Shown: positions 14,669-28,944 of the stretch, in pieces
How the letters are laid out: each line of letters begins with the position of its first letter
Position numbering within the stretch: the first letter of the stretch is position 1
Source of the DNA: Seison nebaliae
Lineage: Eukaryota
DNA: 29,044 bases
NCBI GenBank assembly: GCA_023231475.1
Contig: JALJEE010001690.1
Span: 124,001-153,044, forward strand
Direction of reading: 5' to 3'
Notes under the pieces: generated by a model
Database searches by the model: none
What the model was told of the DNA's origin: nothing
Seen by the model: the letters and a program-made list of their open reading frames with translations, nothing else
Made by a program: the position numbers and the translations under genes

Positions 14669-15630
14669 AGATCTCGTGAAAGACAATAGAACTTATCTCA
14701 TTTTATAACATTAAATTTCTATCTCGTTTTTCTTGTTTTATAATTAATAATGTTCTATCTATCTAATCGTAGAGAATAAAATAAATTGATAAAGTTAAAT
14801 AAAAATATATCTCTTTTCTTTGTCATAAAACTATACAATTAATAAATTCTTTTTAATTCGTCATCTATTAGAAACGATAAATAATAATCATTGGACCATA
14901 ACTTCTCGTTTATCATTTGTATCTTGCGCATATAATTTCTTTTTCTGCCAACGATCCAACTATAATAGAGTGAAATATATGTATTCCATATTAATTTCAC
15001 TTTCAATGTATTGACCATATTGTCATGACAATTGTGCGTACATGATAACGAAAAGTCTTAGGAACAAAATCTACATAACAAAAATACCTGCAATTATCTT
15101 CAATACTTATGTAAAAGGATAATATGTCTTGTATCGACATGGCAAAATGTGTCATGAATGTTTCTCTGTTAATGAAATTGACGAAAACTTCATGATGAGA
15201 AATACTGACGAGTGATTGTTACGACGAAGGACGAAAAGTTTCTTAAATTGTGTAAAGTATCTTTACGGCAATGTTGTTTCTATAGAAATATTGAAGCGCA
15301 TGACAATTGAAAAGAGGAATGATGACATCCAATATTTTATGGAGGTAGTCATTTCAAGAAATATTTCCGAATATTAATAGTACGTAAACATTTGCTTTAA
15401 CTTCACATCTGTTTAACGACATTATGTTTCGAATTTCTCCTTCAGATTCTTAATTAGAATAATAATTTCTTATCCTATTTTGTTCTATTTAGAATTGTTC
15501 AATGAATGAATCTAAAAAACAATCACCTCGATTAAATTTTTTTTAATTCCAATTAATTCAAACAAAACGACACAAACTAATAAACAAAATTAATTCATAA
15601 CCATAATTACCTATAAAAATTGTGAAGAGT

Positions 15631-16461
15631 ATGACAAGAAGATCGACAAAAAAATGTTTGGTTATATGTTGCTCAAGCATTATCAGCTTATTGATATTTG
15701 TCCATTTTTATCTTTTACCGTCCGTAATGGGTTATTATAATGACGAATGTTTATTATCCGTTAACAAGAAATTTATGATGAAAATAATTATGCATTCCTC
15801 TATAGCCACTTTGTTATCATTGGATCAAACAGCGTGGATCGCATCCGGTATCCTGTTAGGATACACAAGAGAGAATGATATTATACCTTGGGATGGTGAT
15901 GTGGATATGGATCGTCTAATTGAACCGAACGATAAAATTGAAAAGAAATTCCATGAAAATTATATTAAACAAATGGAAAGTATACAGTTGATTGAATGTA
16001 AAGGAGATGTCGATCTGATGATTTGCTCGGAAAAGGTGAGAATCGGTTTCGTTATTTGGTCATGGAAAGGTGAAAGGAGAAATGCGAAAGAAATATTGAA
16101 ACATAACGAATATTTGGTGGATTTGGACGATGGGAACATGTTCCAAAAATATATAACAAAAAATTTTAAAATAAGAAAATATTTAACATCGGATATTCTG
16201 CCTATTGAATGGAAGAAAAACAATGAAACTTTCTCCTTAGCTTTTGTTAAGAAGATGTACTCAAGATATTTCAAATTTATAAGGAACCTAAATAAATCGA
16301 TGAATGAGTTGAATGAGAAACAACTTTTAACTTTACGTCAATATATTGGAACATTGCCATTGCCTTTTATCAACAAACCGACCAACTATTTGGATAAACA
16401 CTACCCGAGCGGTTGGAGAAAACCGAAACCATTCAAATGGAAATGTTATATTCCGACATGA
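15631..16461 (+). CDS. LicD/fukutin-family nucleotidyltransferase-fold phosphotransferase, type II membrane protein, intronless
   Basis: N-terminal basic stretch plus TM segment (LVICCSSIISLLIFVHFYLL). LicD signature SGILLGYTRENDIIPWDGDVD and C-terminal YLDKHYPSGWRKP. First ATG is at 15631. Confidence 0.88.
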   Translation: MTRRSTKKCLVICCSSIISLLIFVHFYLLPSVMGYYNDECLLSVNKKFMMKIIMHSSIATLLSLDQTAWIASGILLGYTRENDIIPWDGDVDMDRLIEPNDKIEKKFHENYIKQMESIQLIECKGDVDLMICSEKVRIGFVIWSWKGERRNAKEILKHNEYLVDLDDGNMFQKYITKNFKIRKYLTSDILPIEWKKNNETFSLAFVKKMYSRYFKFIRNLNKSMNELNEKQLLTLRQYIGTLPLPFINKPTNYLDKHYPSGWRKPKPFKWKCYIPT

Positions 16462-17413: not shown

Positions 17414-19207
17414 TTATAAACCGCCATGATAGCCAATTTTATTCCAGAAGTTGCATAAACTTGCTTTGAAGTCCGAGATGATATTAACACCTTGATGATA
17501 ATCAGTTGAATATCTCAACATCTGATAATCATTTTCAACATTATACAAAGGCCATTTGAGAGAACCGTTATTTGGATTACCAGTTTTAACAAAAGACGAC
17601 CATTGCTGAATCAACGTGTCTGACATTCTTATTTCGGAATCGGTATAACTATAATTTAAGAATGGTGCTGTTTGGAAAACATAAGGAATATCGGATCCAT
17701 GACATACTCGGCCTTTACAGAATGTGTCACTAAAACGAGAGAAATAAAATGAAAAAAAATCAAAATTCTACTAACGGTCCCCATGCATCAAAAGAAATAG
17801 CATGATCGAACAAATATCGATATACTGGAACGACTTTCGAAGCATTCTGAGCAAGATATCTTGTTGCACAAGAAAATACCCAATCGGTTGCCATCGAACT
17901 TAATACAGGACGTTCGTCGTTTAATTGGAACGGCGGATATTTATTCATAACGTCAATGGCTTTCTCTCCAAAACTTCCAGCCATAATTTCTAAATATGTA
18001 GCGAGCGAGACTGAAGTATTCCATGCACTATAAATAAAAAGGACACATTCTTCGGTGAGGGAACCCATCAATATCGGTGGTAATTTAGCAAGATGAGATT
18101 TTCCTTTTATACTATCATCCCAGACATCGATAATTTGACCGAAAACATATTTACCATCAACAACTGGAACGAATGGTTCGAAGAAACCCAAAATCTTTAA
18201 AGAAGATGGCACAGTTGCTGTTTTTGCTTGTGCGATAGTTATGTTTTCCCAAGATAAATTGTATAAACAATTTGTATCTCCAAAAGAACATTGAGTCTAT
18301 TAAAGAAAAATACCATAATATATCACAAACATAATCGATATTAACTTCTTCATTAAACTCGACGAATTGTAATGAAGCCGAATCGCGATTCATGAAGGGA
18401 ATGGTCGAAGGAGAACTTTCGATAATTACTTGTTGGAAATATTGTCTACTTCCTAAATTAGTCGCATGGAAAGCAGTAGATTGAGCACCAGCAGATTGAC
18501 CAGATAATGTTATCTGAAATAATATTGTCTATGCTTATAGAAATTATCAATATTTACTCACTTTATCGGGATTACCGTTAAAACGATTAATATTCTCATA
18601 AACCCATTTCAAAGCTAACTCCTGATCTTTCAGACCATAATTACCAGTAAAACCATATTGTTCGCTAAACAAGAATCCTAAAATTCCTAATCGATATTCA
18701 ATTGTGACCACTATAGTATTGGATTTTTTCACCAAATTACTCGCCCAATAAAGTACGGAAGAACTGGACATAAACCGGAAATTTCCTCCATGAATATAAA
18801 CGAGAACCGGAAGAGGTTCTGCTGGAATATTCGTCGGAGCATAAACATTCAAATACAAGCAATCTTCACTTATTTTTGTGGGACACAACATTTTCGGAGT
18901 GAGAACTTCACAATTAATTTGAGGACAAGCTGGTTTTAATTTAGTGCAATCGAGGATATCCGGAAACCATACATTTGGATCAATTGGATCTTTCCATCTT
19001 TAATATTCTCATAATAAATATCTTATGATATTGGTTAAATTGAAACCTTAAGGATTTTGTAGGAGGTGTAGCAAATGGAATACCCCACCAGATATTCGTG
19101 TCATTAATTGTTGTACCTCGAACTTTACCAAATTTAGTGTCAACTATCAGATTACACGAATAATAATTGAATAGTATTTGCAGAATAAGAATTATAAACA
19201 TTTTCAT
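17414..19207 (-). CDS. Secreted type-B carboxylesterase/cholinesterase-family hydrolase, about 533 aa, 5 exons: 19207-19047, 18997-18562, 18513-18346, 18296-17776, 17729-17414
   Basis: Signal peptide, GIPFATPP, SEDCLYLNVY, oxyanion HGGNF, YRLGILGFL, GNYGLKDQ, nucleophile GQSAG, acidic LTEEC, catalytic CHGSDI and FVKTGNPN. Four frame-preserving introns of 46-49 nt. Confidence 0.96.
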
Positions 19208-21303
19208 TTTTTAAGAGAAAAATGAGAAATTGAGAAAAGGTTTTATTACTAAAATAATATGACATCGAATGAACGATGAGAATTATCGCATGTGATAATT
19301 GAAAAAAAATTTAGTTATCGACATAACGAAGTAAAATAATGTGATGGTGGTTGAGGACGGAGAATGATAACATAAGGCACGATAAAGAAAAAAATTGAAA
19401 TGTCAAAAAATTGTATTTAATCAAAAATGTTCATGAATATTTTTTAAAAAATTTTTTTGTCTTCATTCGAAACTTCCATAACTGTATTTGTCAGCGTTGT
19501 TCAGTTTCTCAGAATATGTCGTTGATGGCAATTGGTGGATTGAAGAAATTTGAACTAACGAAAATTAATGTGGAAAAGTTGTTTATGGTGGTTTGTTGTT
19601 AATTGAATTCATCAGCATTCGATCAATGCTTGTGATGAGAGTTAAATAAAATAGAAATTTAAAAATCTACATTCTATTAGATGGAAAAAAGAAAACAAAA
19701 TAAATTAGATTGAATAAAAAGAATGATGAATGAAGAAAAAGATTCCGCACGTCTTCTTTAGAAAAATTGCTGAGAATTAGAAGTAGAATGTTAAATCATC
19801 AAAAAGGTTACACGTCACATGAATTGAAAATAAATGATGATGATAAAATAAATAGATAAACGATGAGTGATGGTGATACAGTATGTGCAGTTGTGATTGA
19901 AAATAACTGGAGCAATTGGACAAGATGAAACAGAAGGAACGATGAAAAGAACTTTTGTCGACTAAAAAGAAATTTGAAAGAAATCAGACACATTATTGTT
20001 TACGTGTAACTGCCATTGGAGGAGGGTAGTTTCTTCCAACGTTCATTGTTTTATCTTCTCATCATTCTCATCGGAACGATATGGGAGCATATGTCAGAAG
20101 AATACTTTAGGTAGACACTCATTTAGTTTTGTTAAGTAGAAACATAAAATCAAGAGATTAAAGATATGTAATCTTATCTTCAAAAATGCTTTTTCAACAG
20201 GAAAACTATTTAATTATTTAATTTATGAATAACTATAAATATAATAAACTTATTTATAAGAAGAAGATACGGTTCATTTCATTATTCGTCATTCAACTTT
20301 AACGAGACGTAAAACCACAAAGTCACAATATAACTTAATGTAAATTAGGAAAGAAATGTGCACAATAATACTGCTAAAATTATAATTTTTATCTCTATAA
20401 AACAATTAAAACAATGATAGCTGTGAGGTATAAATGATACATATATGTAAATTAAGAACATTTTTTGATATTTAAAAGTTATAAGTTGGTCATACGTATA
20501 TAAAAGTCGAAAGAGTAAAGAATAAGTGTAATAAAGCTGTTTTACTTTTTACTTATAACTTAAACTACTTCAATTTTAACGACGTTGAACTTTGGAAGCA
20601 TAATTAAATTCTATTCCATCATAGTATAGCGTTTTAAATTGATGCATTTAATCAAAATTAAAGAAATATTAAATATAATGATCAGTTTTCCTTTCAGCAT
20701 GGTAAAATGTAAACGAATTTAAAACATGAACATGAAACAGTTAGTTTATGGTAATGTTTCTATGACGACCTATTGCATTAATGTGACTCAACTATCGATT
20801 GCACATTTGTACTTTGCAAGAAATTTTATATTCAGGAAATTCAGCTTTTATAAACTGCATAGAATTGAACATAAACGAAACGTAGATTGATTGAACATGA
20901 GAGAGAGGTACTTGTTTCTCTTCACAATTTGGTAACATACTGTTGAACTTATTGCTGAGAAGAGTCCAAAAAACAGAACAGAAAATCAACTATTAATTCA
21001 CATCAACTTAATTATTATATTTAACTGAATTTTAGATTGAATTCTTTTGAGGAAGTTGGCCCATGGGCCATATACTACGAATACCTACTGATTCGTACAA
21101 TGATTAGTGTTTAGCATATAAGTATATTAGAAGAATTTTCTCAAATTTACGCACATTCCTCAAATGTTTGACTGGAAGCTATAACTACAATTCCCATTTC
21201 TAATAGAATTCGTCTAATATTTATTAAGAAAACTTGATTTTTATCTAATAAACGAAATAATGTTTATGAGACTCTGTGTTATAGAACATTCCACTAAAGA
21301 TTC

Positions 21304-21333: not shown

Positions 21334-22023
21334 GTGGCTTCCCACCGCGTAAACTTTCTACACAATCAGCATTCCCACTTTGTTCAAGTGAAACAGTTTT
21401 CATTATCAATCAACACTCATTGAAAACTAATAGTATCATCATCAGACGCACTCCCCACCATTATTCCCGATATTGAAGGAAGAAATATTAATGTGAAATA
21501 GAAATTTCTTTTCACACAATAGAGATTCTTTTATGAATTCTTCGTGATGGAAAATTTATTTTCTCATATTTCTCATTTGAAATTGAGATGAGTATGAAGT
21601 TTAGTGACTAATTGAATTCATCTCATAAGAATATTAAGTTACTTCAATTTGACACACTGAATTCTGAGAGTATTATAAATATCATACTTAATGGTATTTA
21701 TGAACAAATATCTTCTCAAAATAAGAAAATTGTTATGATGTCAATTAACAATTGAATAATCTTGAATAGATGGAACTCTTTCATATTTGTTCGACAAATG
21801 TTGAGAGAAACATACTTGGGGATGTCGGGAGCTGAAAATTTGAATGTTGAGAATTAATAGGATAATATTGTTAGATCAAGTTTTCCCTAAAAAATTTTCA
21901 AACAAAAGCCAAACTAATTATAAAAAATAATGATTCTCCAAAGAGAAGATTCCCATAATAAACAAACATTTCGTGAGGAGGTACAACGAAAATTTTTCAT
22001 GATTCTCATCAATACATTTTCGT

Positions 22024-24765
22024 ATGGTCATAAATTTGATCAGATTATTGGTGAGAGATTATTACAATCTAATAATCAGATGCGAACAATTGGAAAATAA
22101 AGTTGAACAATCCAATTTAAGTTATTTAGCGTCCGATTTAAACAGATATTTAATCTCGACTCGTTATTCATCGGAATTCGAATTAATTCTTCGGGAAAAA
22201 TCTCGTTTCGATAAACGTTATCAAATTATTTGGAAATTTTTGAAAAGAGAAAAATTTCTAATTTCCAAAACGATAATGGATGAGAATCATAAGAATCAAT
22301 TATTCCTCACAATATTCTATCTTCAATTAGTTCACTATTATTTTTATGTGAATTTTCTCGCAATTTATTTTTTCGTTCTATCACAAATATTCACATCAGT
22401 CCGATTAGTGAGTGGTGGCATTAATAGGAGATTATTTATGAGACAACTCAAAAAAGAAAAGCTTTATGGGAAGAAGTTCGAAAACTTAAAACTTTGGATA
22501 TCGTTCAAAAGAAAACAGTTTCGTCTTTTTTATTCTCAAAATAACTCAAAATCAGATGACATTCCAACAAACACAACTCTTCTTTCTCTTACTTATTCTG
22601 AAAATGATTCAATTGATGGATTGTTTGGACAGTTTATTGCGAGAAAAGTCGGTCTTGAACCAGAAACTGAACGATATCGATTAGAACGACTGTTGAGAAG
22701 TGTTAATGAAGATTATTGTTTAACAAAAACTATAAGATCTAATAGATTGTATGTAGTTCCCAAAAACGAAATTTTCTTGCTAAGTCCATCAGCTGAGGAA
22801 GATGAATGGAAAGAAGATGATTTTCTTCTATTTCGTTGTAATAAATCCGAGAAATTTATTTGGGGAATTTATCAAGAACCATTGAAAGATGATTATCATG
22901 CAATTTATCGTTTGGACGAGATAGAAGATGTGGAAGAAAAAACGAACATACATTATCGGAGAATACCTTCTACAAATATTATCCCTAAACGATACATGCA
23001 TCTTGTGAACTATACGTTTAAAATATCAGACGTGAAAGAAGAAGAAGAGAAGATGTTAAGTGATTGGCATCGCGACACGTTTTCATTAGACAAAAAGAGA
23101 TTTAAGCAAAATGAACTAATGAATTGTATCGAAGAAGAAATTGATAAATGTCATGAGGAAATTAGAAATAATTGTTTGGTATCAGAATTATATGTACAAT
23201 TTGATTGGGAAGACGATTTAATTTCAAATCCAATTGAAGAATTCTTACTTAAAACTATGAATGGCAAATTAGAAAATCGATTTGATGTAGAAGAACGTCA
23301 ATATAATCGTTTGAAGAGCAAATTAAGAGAAGAATTGAATGTCAATGAAGAATTACGTCGATACATTCGTTGTTATATTTCCAATCTGAAAATTGGCAAA
23401 TATGAATTTGAAGATGAAGAAACGGAGAGTTCAGATGACGAGGAAGAAGAAATTGAAAACGATATATCAAAAGAGCCGTGGTACGATTATAAATGGAGGA
23501 AATGGAGGAGCTTTTTAGATAATATGGAAAGTGAAAAAGAATCAGATGAAGATAAAAATTCTGAACATTCCGATTTGGAGTTGAATTTAGTGGAGGAAGA
23601 TGAAATATCTGAACATTCTGAAAATTCTGATTTAGAGTTAAATTTATGGGAGGAAGATGAAGAAACTAATGACGATTATTCTAAAGAGAGCGATGGAATT
23701 GATGAAAGTGACAATGAAGATGATGAAGCTACAGAGAGTGAGGAGGAGAAATCGAATGAGAAAGAAACTGATAAATTAGAGAAAAAAAGGAAAAAATGGG
23801 AAAATATTAAACGAATGTTTGAAAATGATATTGAAAAATGGACATATCCAAATCAATTTCCAGAACATCGATCATCGTCCAGTTTAACATCCGATACTTA
23901 TGAGGTAAATTCAGAATCAAATTCATTTAATATTTCACAAATTAATAATTCTAATTCAAATTTCTCACCAACTGACAATTCAGTAAATTCAAATTTGAAA
24001 TCGTTAATTGATGAGGAACATTCCGAGAATTCATCATTATGGAATGAAGATGCAACTTCTTCTGTAAATGAATTGGAAGAATCTTTCAGACGATTATTTC
24101 AACATCGAAATTACAATAAATCTCAAATTATTTCAATCTCTGAAACAAATGAAAGTTCCATTTTTAATAAAAGATATAAAGAATTGGAATATCCGTCGAG
24201 AAATGACCAAGAAATGATTAAGAAACAAATTGAAATATGGATTGCTGACAATATAGATGACGTAAACGATAAAGAATTGTTGGAGGACTGGGAAGTGTAC
24301 ATAAATTATTCCGATATCCTTAATATGGAAAGTGAGTTGGTACTGGAAATTTATTCGAAAGAAAATCGAATTGAATTTGAAAGAAAAGAATTCCTTCAAT
24401 TTCTTTTAGACTATGTGAGAAATGAGAAGTTCTCATTAAATAATTTCAATGAACGAGAGATACACAACATAGATAATTCTACCCGAGTTAATGTCAATGA
24501 CGTGTCAATAGACAATAGAGATACTGCTTGGAATTTATTTAAGAAAAGTGATTTTTATAGAAGATTTGAAGGAAAAATTCAAGGAAGTTATGGTCGAACA
24601 TCTTCGTCGTCAAATTCAATTTTAAATTTTCGCTCATCTCGTGAAAGTTCCACAGTATTTCCCAATACTTCTTATCGTGTTCCAGATGATGATGAATCGA
24701 GAAATGAAACGATCTCCATTCAATGGGTATTCGACTCGTTTACTGCATATTTTTGCGAGTTATGA
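22024..24765 (+). CDS. Uncharacterised intronless 913-aa protein with a large D/E-rich region and a possible Tudor-like (DUF4537-like) domain
   Basis: A 2.7-kb ORF in AT-rich DNA is very unlikely by chance. It has a hydrophobic segment near aa 92-125, a beta-rich-looking segment at about aa 200-330, a coiled-coil stretch, and acidic and S/N-rich tracts. Confidence 0.85.
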   Translation: MVINLIRLLVRDYYNLIIRCEQLENKVEQSNLSYLASDLNRYLISTRYSSEFELILREKSRFDKRYQIIWKFLKREKFLISKTIMDENHKNQLFLTIFYLQLVHYYFYVNFLAIYFFVLSQIFTSVRLVSGGINRRLFMRQLKKEKLYGKKFENLKLWISFKRKQFRLFYSQNNSKSDDIPTNTTLLSLTYSENDSIDGLFGQFIARKVGLEPETERYRLERLLRSVNEDYCLTKTIRSNRLYVVPKNEIFLLSPSAEEDEWKEDDFLLFRCNKSEKFIWGIYQEPLKDDYHAIYRLDEIEDVEEKTNIHYRRIPSTNIIPKRYMHLVNYTFKISDVKEEEEKMLSDWHRDTFSLDKKRFKQNELMNCIEEEIDKCHEEIRNNCLVSELYVQFDWEDDLISNPIEEFLLKTMNGKLENRFDVEERQYNRLKSKLREELNVNEELRRYIRCYISNLKIGKYEFEDEETESSDDEEEEIENDISKEPWYDYKWRKWRSFLDNMESEKESDEDKNSEHSDLELNLVEEDEISEHSENSDLELNLWEEDEETNDDYSKESDGIDESDNEDDEATESEEEKSNEKETDKLEKKRKKWENIKRMFENDIEKWTYPNQFPEHRSSSSLTSDTYEVNSESNSFNISQINNSNSNFSPTDNSVNSNLKSLIDEEHSENSSLWNEDATSSVNELEESFRRLFQHRNYNKSQIISISETNESSIFNKRYKELEYPSRNDQEMIKKQIEIWIADNIDDVNDKELLEDWEVYINYSDILNMESELVLEIYSKENRIEFERKEFLQFLLDYVRNEKFSLNNFNEREIHNIDNSTRVNVNDVSIDNRDTAWNLFKKSDFYRRFEGKIQGSYGRTSSSSNSILNFRSSRESSTVFPNTSYRVPDDDESRNETISIQWVFDSFTAYFCEL

Positions 24766-25258
24766 TGGGAATATCAGTATGGAAGATTTCATGATTTTTA
24801 GGTTGTCCTTTCTTATCAGTCAACATGGCCAAATAACCACCGTTAAATGGATTCGTTCTTACGATATCTGGAGTTTCCGTTAATTTTCTATTAATTTCAA
24901 TAAGACAACTCTTCAGACATGCTGGAACATTATAATATTTATTTTCTTCCGTTATTAATTGGCAAATAATGAAATTTGGAGAGACCATTGGCATATTCTT
25001 CTTCATTTTCCCCGAAGCTTTCAAAGTTGTCAAATCAATTGTCGATTGTTTCCCATCGAAATTAATTTTTTTTATTTTCTCCTTGTTCTTCAGGATAGGA
25101 TGCTCAGGAGATAATGTTACCAGATATATTCCATTCGAATGTCGAAGAACATTAAATTTCTCATTATTCTCATTCGAATATTCGCCAATTGTAAAATACC
25201 TTTCTATGAAACATTTGTATGCGAAATCTTCAAAATTTTTAGTTGAGATCGGATTCAT
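24740..25258 (-). CDS. ABITRAM: Protein Abitram (FAM206A/Simiate), glycine-cleavage-H-like fold, intronless
   Basis: FIERYFT, HSNGIYLVTLSPEHPIL, SGKMKK, VPACLKSCLIEINRKL and PFNGGYLAML match the family. Confidence 0.92.
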   Translation of the reverse strand: MNPISTKNFEDFAYKCFIERYFTIGEYSNENNEKFNVLRHSNGIYLVTLSPEHPILKNKEKIKKINFDGKQSTIDLTTLKASGKMKKNMPMVSPNFIICQLITEENKYYNVPACLKSCLIEINRKLTETPDIVRTNPFNGGYLAMLTDKKGQPKNHEIFHTDIPIITRKNMQ

Positions 25259-26163
25259 ATTTTCACTCTTCTATTATTTCCATAAGCTTTCATATTCAAA
25301 TTATATTTCTATATTTTTTCCTTGTTCAACATATTTAGTTCTGGTTAAATCAATTTCCATTTACTCTTAAAAATTACTAGAATTTTATAAATAATATTGT
25401 TAATTATTAAAACTTGTATTTATATTTTATTTTTTAATGTACCTAACAATTGTAAGATACGTAAGAATTCCCCTAAAAATTAACATCTGGAATCTAAATT
25501 GATTAATCAATCTTGACAAATATATTAAACTTAACGTTCTTAAAATTTAAATCTGACAAAATGTTTTCCATTATGAGAGAGTAGTGAACGAATAAAAAAT
25601 ACCATTGGTCTCCGACAATATTTTTTGTTAAGATTTCTGTTAAAGGTTAGTTAAGGTGAGTTAGGTGAGGTTAAAAATTTTTTTGAGAATGATCAATAAA
25701 ACAACTGTGAAGAAAGACGTTTTACTGTCATTTGTGTAGGAATGAAATAAGAGAGACTCTATTTAAACCCGACATGAAAAAGTTTCGAAGTTCGGATAAT
25801 TTATGTCTTCAGATCATCGAAAGATTGGGTTCGTTATTGTTTGGCTTGACAGTTTCATAGAATGTTGGTAACTATAATGATTAATTTTCCAATTAAATAA
25901 AAAAAATGTTCTTTTCTATTAGAAATATTTAGGATATGTGGCTAAATTTAATACATTTTGAAGTAGCTGCTCATTATCTTATTATTATCAAAGCATATAA
26001 TTAATTAAACATCTATGGCGTTTCTAGAATGAATAACACCGATTCATGGTATTGAATATTACGTTTATATTGGTAATAAAAAATATGAACAGCTTAAAAT
26101 TTAGAACAGTTTTCCCGGAATTGTGCTTCTAACTTTTCACATTGTAAATTGTTTATAGGGTAT

Positions 26164-26228: not shown

Positions 26229-28921
26229 ATGGCGTCAAATAAAGTTATTTATCTATTGCTCTTTTAATCTGTAATTTTGAAATCTAATTTGTAATAAAAT
26301 AGAGAATTATTGAATTAGGGAAGGCGGATACGGGTGGAGGTAGCGTTCTAATGAAATGGCAAAAGAAACAAGCATCTTATTTTGCTTTAGTTGGGTTAGA
26401 ATTAAATCTTGAACATCTATTTTGAAGGTGAACATCTTCTAAAAGAGATAAGAAACAACTACAACTGTATAGTCGACAGGGAGAAAATATTGCTCAATAC
26501 AAACTTTCTTCGTTAGAAACGTTTTTAATTGCTAAGTGTAATAATGTTAATTAGACATGCAACCGCTATAGAATGGTCTAGAAATGGTGATTACGTTGCA
26601 GTTACATTAGCGAAGAAGTCCCATGTGATTATACTAAATGTGAACAACATGTTTTTCCAAGAGGTGGAATCAGGATTCCGGTTTGACTTATTGATTTTTC
26701 TTTTCTCAATAAAGTGTGAATAGAGATCAATTATCCTCTATATCATGGTCATTGGTTTCCAATGTTCTGGCTATTGGAACGTCAAAAGGAAATTTAATGT
26801 TATATGATCCAGATAGTGATCAGAAAACCCCGTTATTAGGAAAACTTTCGAAAAAGATCACTTCAATAATCTGGAGTCGAGATAATTTACTTGCTTTGGC
26901 GTCAGACGATGGAAAATTATCCATAAATGAAGCAAATGGTGATACGATGAAAGAATTATCAATTTCTAAAGGAATCACCAATTTGAAATTTGGTAATATG
27001 AAAGGAAGTGAACCATCTAATTATCGAGACAATACGGTTCGTACTTTATTATTGATAAATATAAATTTATTATAAAATTCATAATTAGATTGCAATGAGT
27101 TGTGGAAAGAGTCTGTTCTTTCTTAACTTAAATGAACTTGATCATCCAGTCGAAATGAATTTCCAAGAAAAATATGGAAATATTGTCAATTATCATTGGT
27201 ATGGTGATGGTTATATAGTAATGGGATTTGAGAAGGGATCATTTCTCGTCATATCAACACATCCTTCTGAAATAGAAAAGGTTTCAATATTTAAATTCCA
27301 AACCTTCTATATAATATTATATATTTCTGTCAAAACTTTTAATCTTTTGGACTGTAGGAGAGATATACGTCAAAGAATCATCAAAACTATTTAGCTGATG
27401 TTGCGATATGTAAAGAATTGGAGAAGGCGGCAACTTGTGGAGATCACTGGTTATTCATTTAATATTAACTTTGTTTCTTTTGTCAATATTGTCAGGATAA
27501 AAGTAAAATCGATCTCTATTTTGAATAATTATGTGAAGTATTCAACATTTCTTCTAATTCTATTTCTTTTTATTTATTCATTTATTTCGATATTTTCGAT
27601 AATTTTATTTTTGTAGTATAACGATCAATAATTTGAATGATAATGTCATGAGTGGACTAGTGGAGATTGATCAATATCAACCGGTTACTGAAATGAGTTT
27701 GTTTCATTTTTTTTCGTTCGTCTATTTCGATTATTAAGTTTTCTAAATATCGACCTTTTCAATTTAGTAAGGGAACTGATTTTGACTATTGTAATTAAAT
27801 TTTTTTAGAAATATTGATACTTCAGAATTAGTTGATATTGACATCCTAAAAGTTGATCATATTAAATCATTTCATTCAATGGGTAGCTACTATCTTTCTT
27901 AATACAATATTCCTTCGTTCTATTCATTCATTTTTCTTTTGATTAAAATCATTACTTATTTCTTTCACTTCATAAATTTTAAATATAAAAAAATTATTTT
28001 ATTTATATTGTTATTTTATATCAATTTTGTTATTTTATATCAATTTTGTTATTATATTCTTATCCTATGTTCCATTATTCATTAGATTGGTCTGATGATG
28101 GATCTATGATGTCAATAACAACCACCGACGGAATAGTCGTGGTTTTTCTGATGAAGATGCCTCAAATACATAGCACTTATAATTTAACGATGGCTTACTT
28201 GACATCTTTGAGAGAGGTTACAATAAACAATGCTATTATACCACAAATGGATATCAAAATAGAAACTCCGTTTGAACCTCAAACTATAGGAGTCAGTCAG
28301 CTATTTTTAACAATCGGCTTCAATAACCGTATATGGTTCTATGGCGCTTCAGAAGGTTTGTTGTTAATATTTCTTTTTAAAATTCAATAATGGTCGAACA
28401 ACTTTTAGATAATAACTATACTAAATTGTACGAAAAAGAATATCTGAATTCGGTTCGGAAGATTCGAATGAACGACCAATACATAGCTGTTTTGATGGAG
28501 AAACAAGTTCAAATTCACGGAAATGATGAACGTTATGAGGAACATGAAAATGTAGCGACTGCTATTATTCCCGCCGATTTGAACGAAGGAAATTCTGCGA
28601 CCGATATCGATATGAACAGTTCTTATGTAGCTATTAGTCAAATGGTTGAGCTTAAAAACTTGTATAAAAAAACCAATTTTTTCTATTCAGAATGGAGAGA
28701 TAAAGTACTTCTTATTAAGGAATTGGAGTGAATCGATAGCATTTAAACATTCGTTAATGGTGAAGAGGATTTTCATTCAACCGTCTGGTTCACTTGCCGC
28801 TTTCATTGATAAATCAAATGATGGATTTATTTTAAATCCGATACGACATACAATTATTGAAATACCTGAACTTCCTCCAAAATGTCAAGGAATTCTTTGG
28901 GAAGTCTATAACAAAGAAAGT
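26229..28921 (+). CDS. WDR19: WD repeat protein 19 / IFT144, 5' part (continues past the window). Exons 26229-26243, 26303-26394, 26446-26511, 26555-26680, 26724-27036, 27089-27280, 27358-27449, [alternative: 27496-27537, 27617-27696, 27809-27882], 28086-28355, 28409-28644, 28691-28921
   Basis: Spliced translation matches WDR19: [70 protein letters not shown] and [10 protein letters not shown]. Confidence 0.97.
28008..28053. repeat. 19-bp intronic tandem repeat (about 2.5 copies)
   Basis: ttgttattttatatcaatt repeated inside a WDR19 intron. Confidence 0.85.
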
Positions 28922-28944
28922 GTTAGTTTTGTTATCATAAATAT

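Follow-up and report, generated by a model that had tools for sequence, protein, structure and literature searches.

Does the gene for WDR19/IFT144, a protein of ciliary transport, in the rotifer Seison nebaliae encode one version of a segment of its first beta-propeller, or two versions that exclude each other? The DNA considered here, called the window, is the whole analysed stretch of 29,044 nucleotides (contig JALJEE010001690.1 of assembly GCA_023231475.1, positions 124,001 to 153,044). A first-pass annotation, made from its letters and open reading frames, had proposed that two exons, A and B, replace each other in a WD40 blade of this gene and give rise to two proteins with swapped segments, perhaps serving different kinds of cilia. 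All positions below are those of the window.

Identity of the gene and its public model

The NCBI protein SNEBB_006880 of Seison nebaliae (P0001, 583 aa) is reproduced exactly by 12 exons and 11 GT-AG introns. The gene continues past the last donor at 28922, and SNEBB_006880 is a partial sequence that ends at residue 583; a C-terminal TPR array and a zinc-binding domain also belong to WDR19/IFT144. The exon at 28088-28354 matches residues 327-412 of human WDR19 with an E-value of 3e-15 and SNEBB_006880 with 100% identity. Pfam detects the N-terminal tandem beta-propellers of the WDR19 type (PF23389, E 5e-100, 335 bits; PF15911, 182 bits), and the segment in question falls within the first of them (residues 20-353). 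The best structural match of the predicted SNEBB_006880 model is IFT144 in the IFT-A1 module (8BBF chain A, E 9e-58). These matches identify the gene as WDR19/IFT144 of Seison nebaliae, in agreement with the first-pass annotation.

The public model contains B and a further short exon, termed m, which is spliced to B through a 271-nt intron that bypasses A. Since this path uses a long intron and two atypical donors, RNA hints may underlie the model. At a minimum, the exon that best fits the protein family, A, is missing from the public gene model. A representative search with the exon 26725-27036 yielded, besides P0001, no relative above 56% identity among the 150 matches listed, so that no comparison with other rotifers was available.

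Exon map and reading frames

The features of the locus are as follows.

26229-28921 (+): 5' part of the WDR19/IFT144 gene, encoding the first and most of the second beta-propeller (NCBI model match, Pfam, human WDR19)
27358-27449 (+): constitutive exon upstream of the alternatives; the C-G-D-H codons precede its phase-2 end (NCBI model; intron position common to related loci)
27450-27495 (+): 46-nt intron with an ordinary GTT donor; a copy appears to persist as a relic at 27573-27616
27496-27537 (+): exon m, 42 nt, phase 2-2, GTA donor; predicted to encode strand c and a short helix (NCBI model, divergent contig, DNA similarity to A)
27573-27616 (+): putative relic of the duplicated upstream intron, ending in the acceptor of A (exact 11-nt repeat, 27451-27461 recurring at 27574-27584)
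27617-27696 (+): exon A, 80 nt, phase 2-1, of ancestral type as judged by profile rank; strands c and d plus strand a of the next blade; without a place in the NCBI model
27697-27706 (+): donors of A, a consensus-like one at 27697 and a weak second one at 27701, use of which would turn A into an 84-nt in-frame cassette (donor scores)
27809-27882 (+): exon B, 74 nt, phase 2-1, GTA donor; strand d plus strand a of the next blade (NCBI model, divergent contig, predicted strands)
27883-28085 (+): 203-nt intron, containing a 19-nt tandem repeat at 28008-28057 (2.6 copies, 50 nt)
28086-28355 (+): downstream constitutive exon, W-S-D-D-G onward (human WDR19 match, NCBI model)

Acceptors are present at 27495, 27616, 27808 and 28085, and donors at 27450, 27538, 27697, 27701 and 27883; the sites, lengths (A 80, B 74, m 42 nt) and phases given in the first-pass annotation thus all recur at their coordinates. 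Exons A and B share entry phase 2 and exit phase 1, and both end at an M-x-W position (M-N-W in A, M-D-W in B). Translation of the joined paths leaves the frame open for A alone, m+B, m+A, A84+B and m+A84+B, where A84 is A extended to the donor at 27701. Stops occur in A+B, in m+A+B, in m alone and when all three exons are skipped. B joined directly to the upstream exon creates a TGA at the junction and is therefore usable only after m or A84, which bears out the earlier claim that B needs m. The frame shift that had been expected from joint inclusion of A and B was likewise found: via the donor at 27697 a stop falls inside B, whereas via the weak donor at 27701 the frame stays open.

As there are 586 open GT-AG paths through the stretch, the matching phases alone carry little weight; support beyond chance comes from a homologue profile and from a divergent contig. 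The introns around the exons had been described as longer than usual. Compared to the ordinary introns of 43-77 nt (n=14), this is true for those of 112 and 203 nt, while the one of 79 nt is merely borderline.

Fit of the alternative paths to the protein family

A profile was built from 21 homologue segments, excluding two gene models in which an exon was skipped or introns were retained. A alone ranks first among the 586 open paths (82.4 bits), and it is also first with a second profile of 11 animal sequences. A84+B follows at rank 14, m+A at 34, m+B at 149 and m+A84+B at 259. With 69.0 bits, m+B lies near the median of all paths (66.7 bits), as does the combination of all three exons (67.2 bits). 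The distance from the cysteine to the tryptophan is 33 residues in A, 45 in m+B, 47 in m+A and 73 with all three exons; it is 31-39 residues in 49 of the 53 homologues that passed the coverage filter (180 were searched, and 140 gave a hit). When only the alternative residues were shuffled, none of 500 shuffles scored as high as A, m+B or m+A, whereas B without m failed to stand out (84/500). Likeness to the corresponding family segments was reached by few shuffles for the 5' part of A (3/500), the 3' part of A (1/500), m (5/500) and B (13/500).

The search for related loci yielded 80, of which 49 had both flanks; 37 of these have no intron here and 12 have one. In 6 of the 12, the intron occupies the phase-2 position of the donor at 27450. 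A duplicate of the segment was seen in none of the 49 loci, by a scan that failed to recover even A and B of the window itself, so that the blank in the related loci is weak evidence. A weak protein search with the A-containing open reading frame returned one candidate and no match. Judged by its fit to the family, A is the ancestral-type exon.

The profile bears on a first alternative, in which m is constitutive and A and B form an ordinary mutually exclusive pair behind it. The products would be m+A, with 47 residues between C and W, or m+B, with 45, and the first strand of A would become a loop. The skipping of m in the A-alone path does call for an explanation, given the strong 46-nt intron before m, which is ordinary in length and sites. 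Moreover, m+A is open and surpasses all 500 shuffles, and A and B have similar lengths and identical phases. However, the 5' part of A still resembles strand c of the family, and the cysteine codon is rebuilt, as it is in locus L070, when A follows the upstream exon directly. The score is 75.7 for m+A versus 81.4 for A alone, the ranks are 34 and 1, and the donor of m is the weakest of those scored (-4.0). A constitutive m is therefore rather doubtful. A is probably joined directly to the upstream exon, and B is probably always used with m.

Other departures from the usual segment were seen among the homologues. In one RefSeq isoform of Monopterus albus WDR19 (P0024, cluster 2), the corresponding exon is extended in frame at either end by insertions that look like retained introns, and the cluster contains several isoforms of graded length. 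In sheep WDR19 (P0027) the segment is skipped.

Conservation in a divergent allele

Four DNA runs were aligned on 26300-27940. The region was covered by X4 alone; the pieces from X1 and X2 were short and due to chance, and X6 yielded no alignment. Over 26300-27840, the main contig of X4 (depth 28) is identical to the window. A second X4 contig of 438 nt (depth 5) aligns solely at 27493-27540, 27615-27710 and 27803-27840. These blocks contain m, A and the first 32 nt of B, and the A block spans both donors, 27697 and 27701. The second contig, one record from one run, differs from the window at 2 positions in the m block (48 nt), 10 in the A block and 1 in the B block (38 nt). Between the blocks there is no alignment at 90%, and the lengths of these stretches differ; conservation tracks the exon borders. 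All 4 of the displayed changes in A (4 of the 10 differences in its block) are synonymous in the frame of A (chance 0.004), compared to 1/4 and 0/4 in the other frames. For m and the start of B there are 3 differences in 86 nt, with a chance of about 0.002 each if 20% neutral divergence is assumed. Seison nebaliae has been reported, in the available part of PMC8351084, to comprise two strains with a mitochondrial divergence of approximately 17.5%; a second strain is therefore a plausible source of the divergent contig.

This comparison shows conservation of m, of A and of the beginning of B in a divergent allele. All three are very probably genuine exons subject to selection. This bears on a second alternative, namely that a single path makes protein, most likely A alone, that the remaining blocks are relic duplicates or splicing-regulatory elements, and that the NCBI exon choice is wrong. 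The modest family fit of m+B, the failure of B without m against shuffles (84/500) and the atypical donors of m and B would agree with it. Against it stand the 3 differences in 86 nt of m and B, while the adjoining introns fail to align at 90%, the coincidence of conservation with exon borders, and the m+B segment itself, which beats 500/500 shuffles and is predicted to fold as a complete blade. A single productive path is thus improbable.

Predicted fold of the m+B form

The structure prediction proposed in the first-pass annotation supports the two-version reading for the m+B form. Folded models were those of the m+B form and of a canonical homologue; A was placed on the fold via the profile alignment. 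In the AlphaFold2 model of P0001 (mean pLDDT 87.7), which represents m+B, m forms a strand (residues 299-304) and a short helix, and B forms two strands (322-327 and 334-339); residues 311-314 are a low-confidence loop. In the canonical homologue model, the corresponding three strands are 295-300, 309-312 and 320-325. Since the m+B strands match these three, m+B would be a complete substitute for the canonical segment, and it is predicted to cover the region that A occupies in the propeller. According to this prediction, the m+B protein would retain the fold; its 12 extra residues would fall in two surface loops, and its segment is less acidic (net charge -1, compared to -4 for A).

In two Schistosoma IFT144 sequences (P0028, P0029) and a relative (P0075), 17-21 extra residues lie in the loop where B adds residues. 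This propeller loop therefore tolerates insertions.

The N-terminal propellers of IFT-A face the membrane in train models, according to the available part of 10.1101/2022.08.09.503213. For the segment encoded by A or by m and B, the available part of PMC10023715 names no contact.

Splice signals

Among 23 ordinary donors of three genes (WDR19, the calcineurin-like gene and the carboxylesterase gene; two further anchor pairs remained unplaced), 22 are GTT, one is GTG and none is GTA. The donors of m and of B are both GTA, and this shared class offers a possible way of coupling the two exons. With a matrix derived from 15 donors, the scores are 6.4 for 27697, 1.4 for 27701, 1.3 for the B donor and -4.0 for the m donor; ordinary donors score 0.0-9.0 in a leave-one-out comparison. 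The prevalence of GTT might reflect an unusual consensus at 5' splice sites, or else a variant U1, in Seison nebaliae. Six related WDR19 loci have GTA donors, unlike the GTT rule of the window.

The donor at 27701 is the basis of a third alternative: all three exons would always be included, and a single protein with a 73-residue segment would loop the duplicated strands out of the propeller. This path is open and has the shortest introns (46, 79, 108 and 203 nt), fitting a genome with introns of 43-77 nt, and 3 of the 53 homologues carry 17-21 extra residues in the segment. The hexamer at 27701 serves as donor at two ordinary introns, and the site outscores 2 of the 15 ordinary donors. At both of those introns the hexamer is preceded by AAG, however, which is missing at 27701, and the site is inferior to 27697 in score (1.4 vs 6.4) and in U1 matches (3/11 vs 5/11). 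The extension of A to an 84-nt in-frame cassette, which had been pointed out earlier, is correct as to frame but depends on a weak donor. Furthermore, the path ranks only 259th of 586, A is left out of the NCBI model, the M-x-W strand is the end point of A as well as of B, and each strand is still family-like in either copy. If m+B is a complete substitute, the form with all three exons would duplicate every strand. Constant inclusion is accordingly quite unlikely.

Several known means of excluding one exon by another were considered for A and B. Branch-point sterics found no support: the sole YTRAY in the intron between m and A lies 20 nt from the m donor, and the motif is absent in 3 of 13 ordinary introns and has no fixed place in the others. 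AG exclusion zones found none either, AG-free introns being not unusual. For docking-site/selector pairing of the Dscam type, the RNA fold of 27430-27930 gave a z of -0.05, and the inverted repeats were short only. When 30 exon/intron length signatures of the gene were compared with 19,906 listed rows of the transcript map in the available part of PMC8351084, 3 matches resulted, all in other contexts.

Origin of m and B

At the DNA level, m resembles the 5' part of A (1/3000 shuffles; 80% identity over 25 nt). The upstream intron together with m aligns with 27573-27650 (0/2000 shuffles, with borders chosen after the repeat was seen); for the relic intron part alone, 131/2000 shuffles were as good. 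From the similarity of m to A and the alignment of intron plus m, m arose by tandem duplication: according to these alignments, it is a duplicate of the upstream intron and the 5' part of A.

Similarity between A and B is not significant (protein 436/3000 shuffles; DNA p 0.55), and neither is a relic third intron copy upstream of B (146/2000 and 1106/2000 shuffles). The A segment and the m+B segment, when compared, gave a p of 0.01. B shares the phases and the M-x-W end of A and resembles the C-terminal half of the family segment (13/500). It may be an older, diverged duplicate of an A-type exon whose first strand has disappeared, which would make it dependent on m.

Probable alternative use of A and B

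That A and B are used alternatively, with or without m before A, is the likeliest reading, and a fairly probable one. Its narrower form, in which A alone and m+B are the mutually exclusive alternatives for one segment of the first propeller, has about an even chance of being correct. The existence of two versions is suggested by homology, by conservation in the divergent allele, by the m+B path of the NCBI model and by the predicted fold; we infer the mutual exclusion of A and B from sequence and predicted fold. The proposal of the first-pass annotation is partly supported. It is refined in two points: m is itself a partial duplicate of A, and the similarity of A and B is not significant.

In the proposed mechanism, the default path would lead from the upstream exon to A and on to the downstream exon via ordinary GTT donors. 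In the second path, both GTA donors, those of m and B, would be active together. Wrong joins would be cleared by nonsense-mediated decay.

Comparison with known exon pairs

As far as described in the available parts of Hatje et al. 2017 (PMC5740500) and Martinez Gomez et al. 2021 (PMC8373072), internal mutually exclusive exons derived from duplication have equal entry and exit phases and lengths not divisible by three. They encode one structural region, end inside secondary structure and cause a stop on joint inclusion. A and B are like them in phases and lengths, by prediction also in the region encoded, and, where A is spliced from 27697, in the stop on joint inclusion. They also agree in frame and have similar lengths (80 and 74 nt, both phase 2-1), as Hatje et al. 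2017 use for recognition, along with sequence similarity of the alternatives and junction reads that span from each exon past the other. In human, 60% of the clusters are frame-shifting, and 87% of the structure-mapped exons have an end embedded in secondary structure (PMC5740500, available part). Unlike those pairs, B needs a partial duplicate, m, upstream of A, such that the two-exon path straddles the one-exon path; the similarity of A and B is no longer significant, and splicing in Seison is deduced from genomic sequence. Human CUX1, with interleaved clusters in which exon 3a is spliced solely with exon 4a (same source and part), is alike in that one of two mutually exclusive exons has an optional exon tied to it. 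It differs in being an unrelated gene that alternates whole exon sets, whereas m is a truncated copy that would replace the missing first strand of B.

WDR19/IFT144 of other eukaryotes (8BBF, 8BBG, 8FGW; PF23389) is an orthologous protein with the same fold. Six loci have a phase-2 intron before the segment; a segment duplicate was seen in none of 49 by the insensitive scan, unlike in Seison. WDR19, IFT140, IFT122, WDR35, TTC21B and IFT172 are absent from the human exon catalogues in the available parts of PMC5740500 and PMC8373072, where control genes are present. In the portions of the literature retrieved, no mutually exclusive exons were found for IFT144 or other IFT genes, and the one report on WDR19 splicing concerns cryptic splicing in cattle. 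The Seison case would most likely be a lineage-specific variant of duplication-born mutually exclusive splicing.

If true, a regulated swap in the first propeller of IFT144 would be a direct way of tailoring one transport machine to different cilia, and a duplicated exon would have been completed by a later partial duplicate. It would concern one lineage and an organism that is hard to handle in the laboratory. A more far-reaching idea is that this IFT-A core subunit alternates between an ancestral blade encoded by one exon and a rebuilt blade whose two exons straddle it, that the switch is coupled via the rare GTA donors, and that it provides cilium-type- or sex-specific IFT trains with an altered membrane-side propeller surface. 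This idea is a long shot.

Neighbouring genes

A multi-exon phosphatase gene with a Metallophos match, which we take to be calcineurin A-like from motifs, is located at about 4850-7450 (+). A carboxylesterase gene of five exons (PF00135) lies at 17414-19210 (-), and an intronless open reading frame at 15607-16461 (+) matches the LicD family (E 2e-7). Two long intronless reading frames, at 11620-13458 (-; 612 aa) and at 22003-24765 (+; 920 aa, very acidic), have no Pfam match. The same holds for a 145-aa reading frame at 13635-14072 (-), which by eye resembles the small subunit of TFIIA. An intronless reading frame of the Abitram (actin-binding transcription modulator) type at 24740-25270 (-), with a feature score of 0.97 and no Pfam match, is arranged head-to-head with WDR19 at a distance of about 960 nt.
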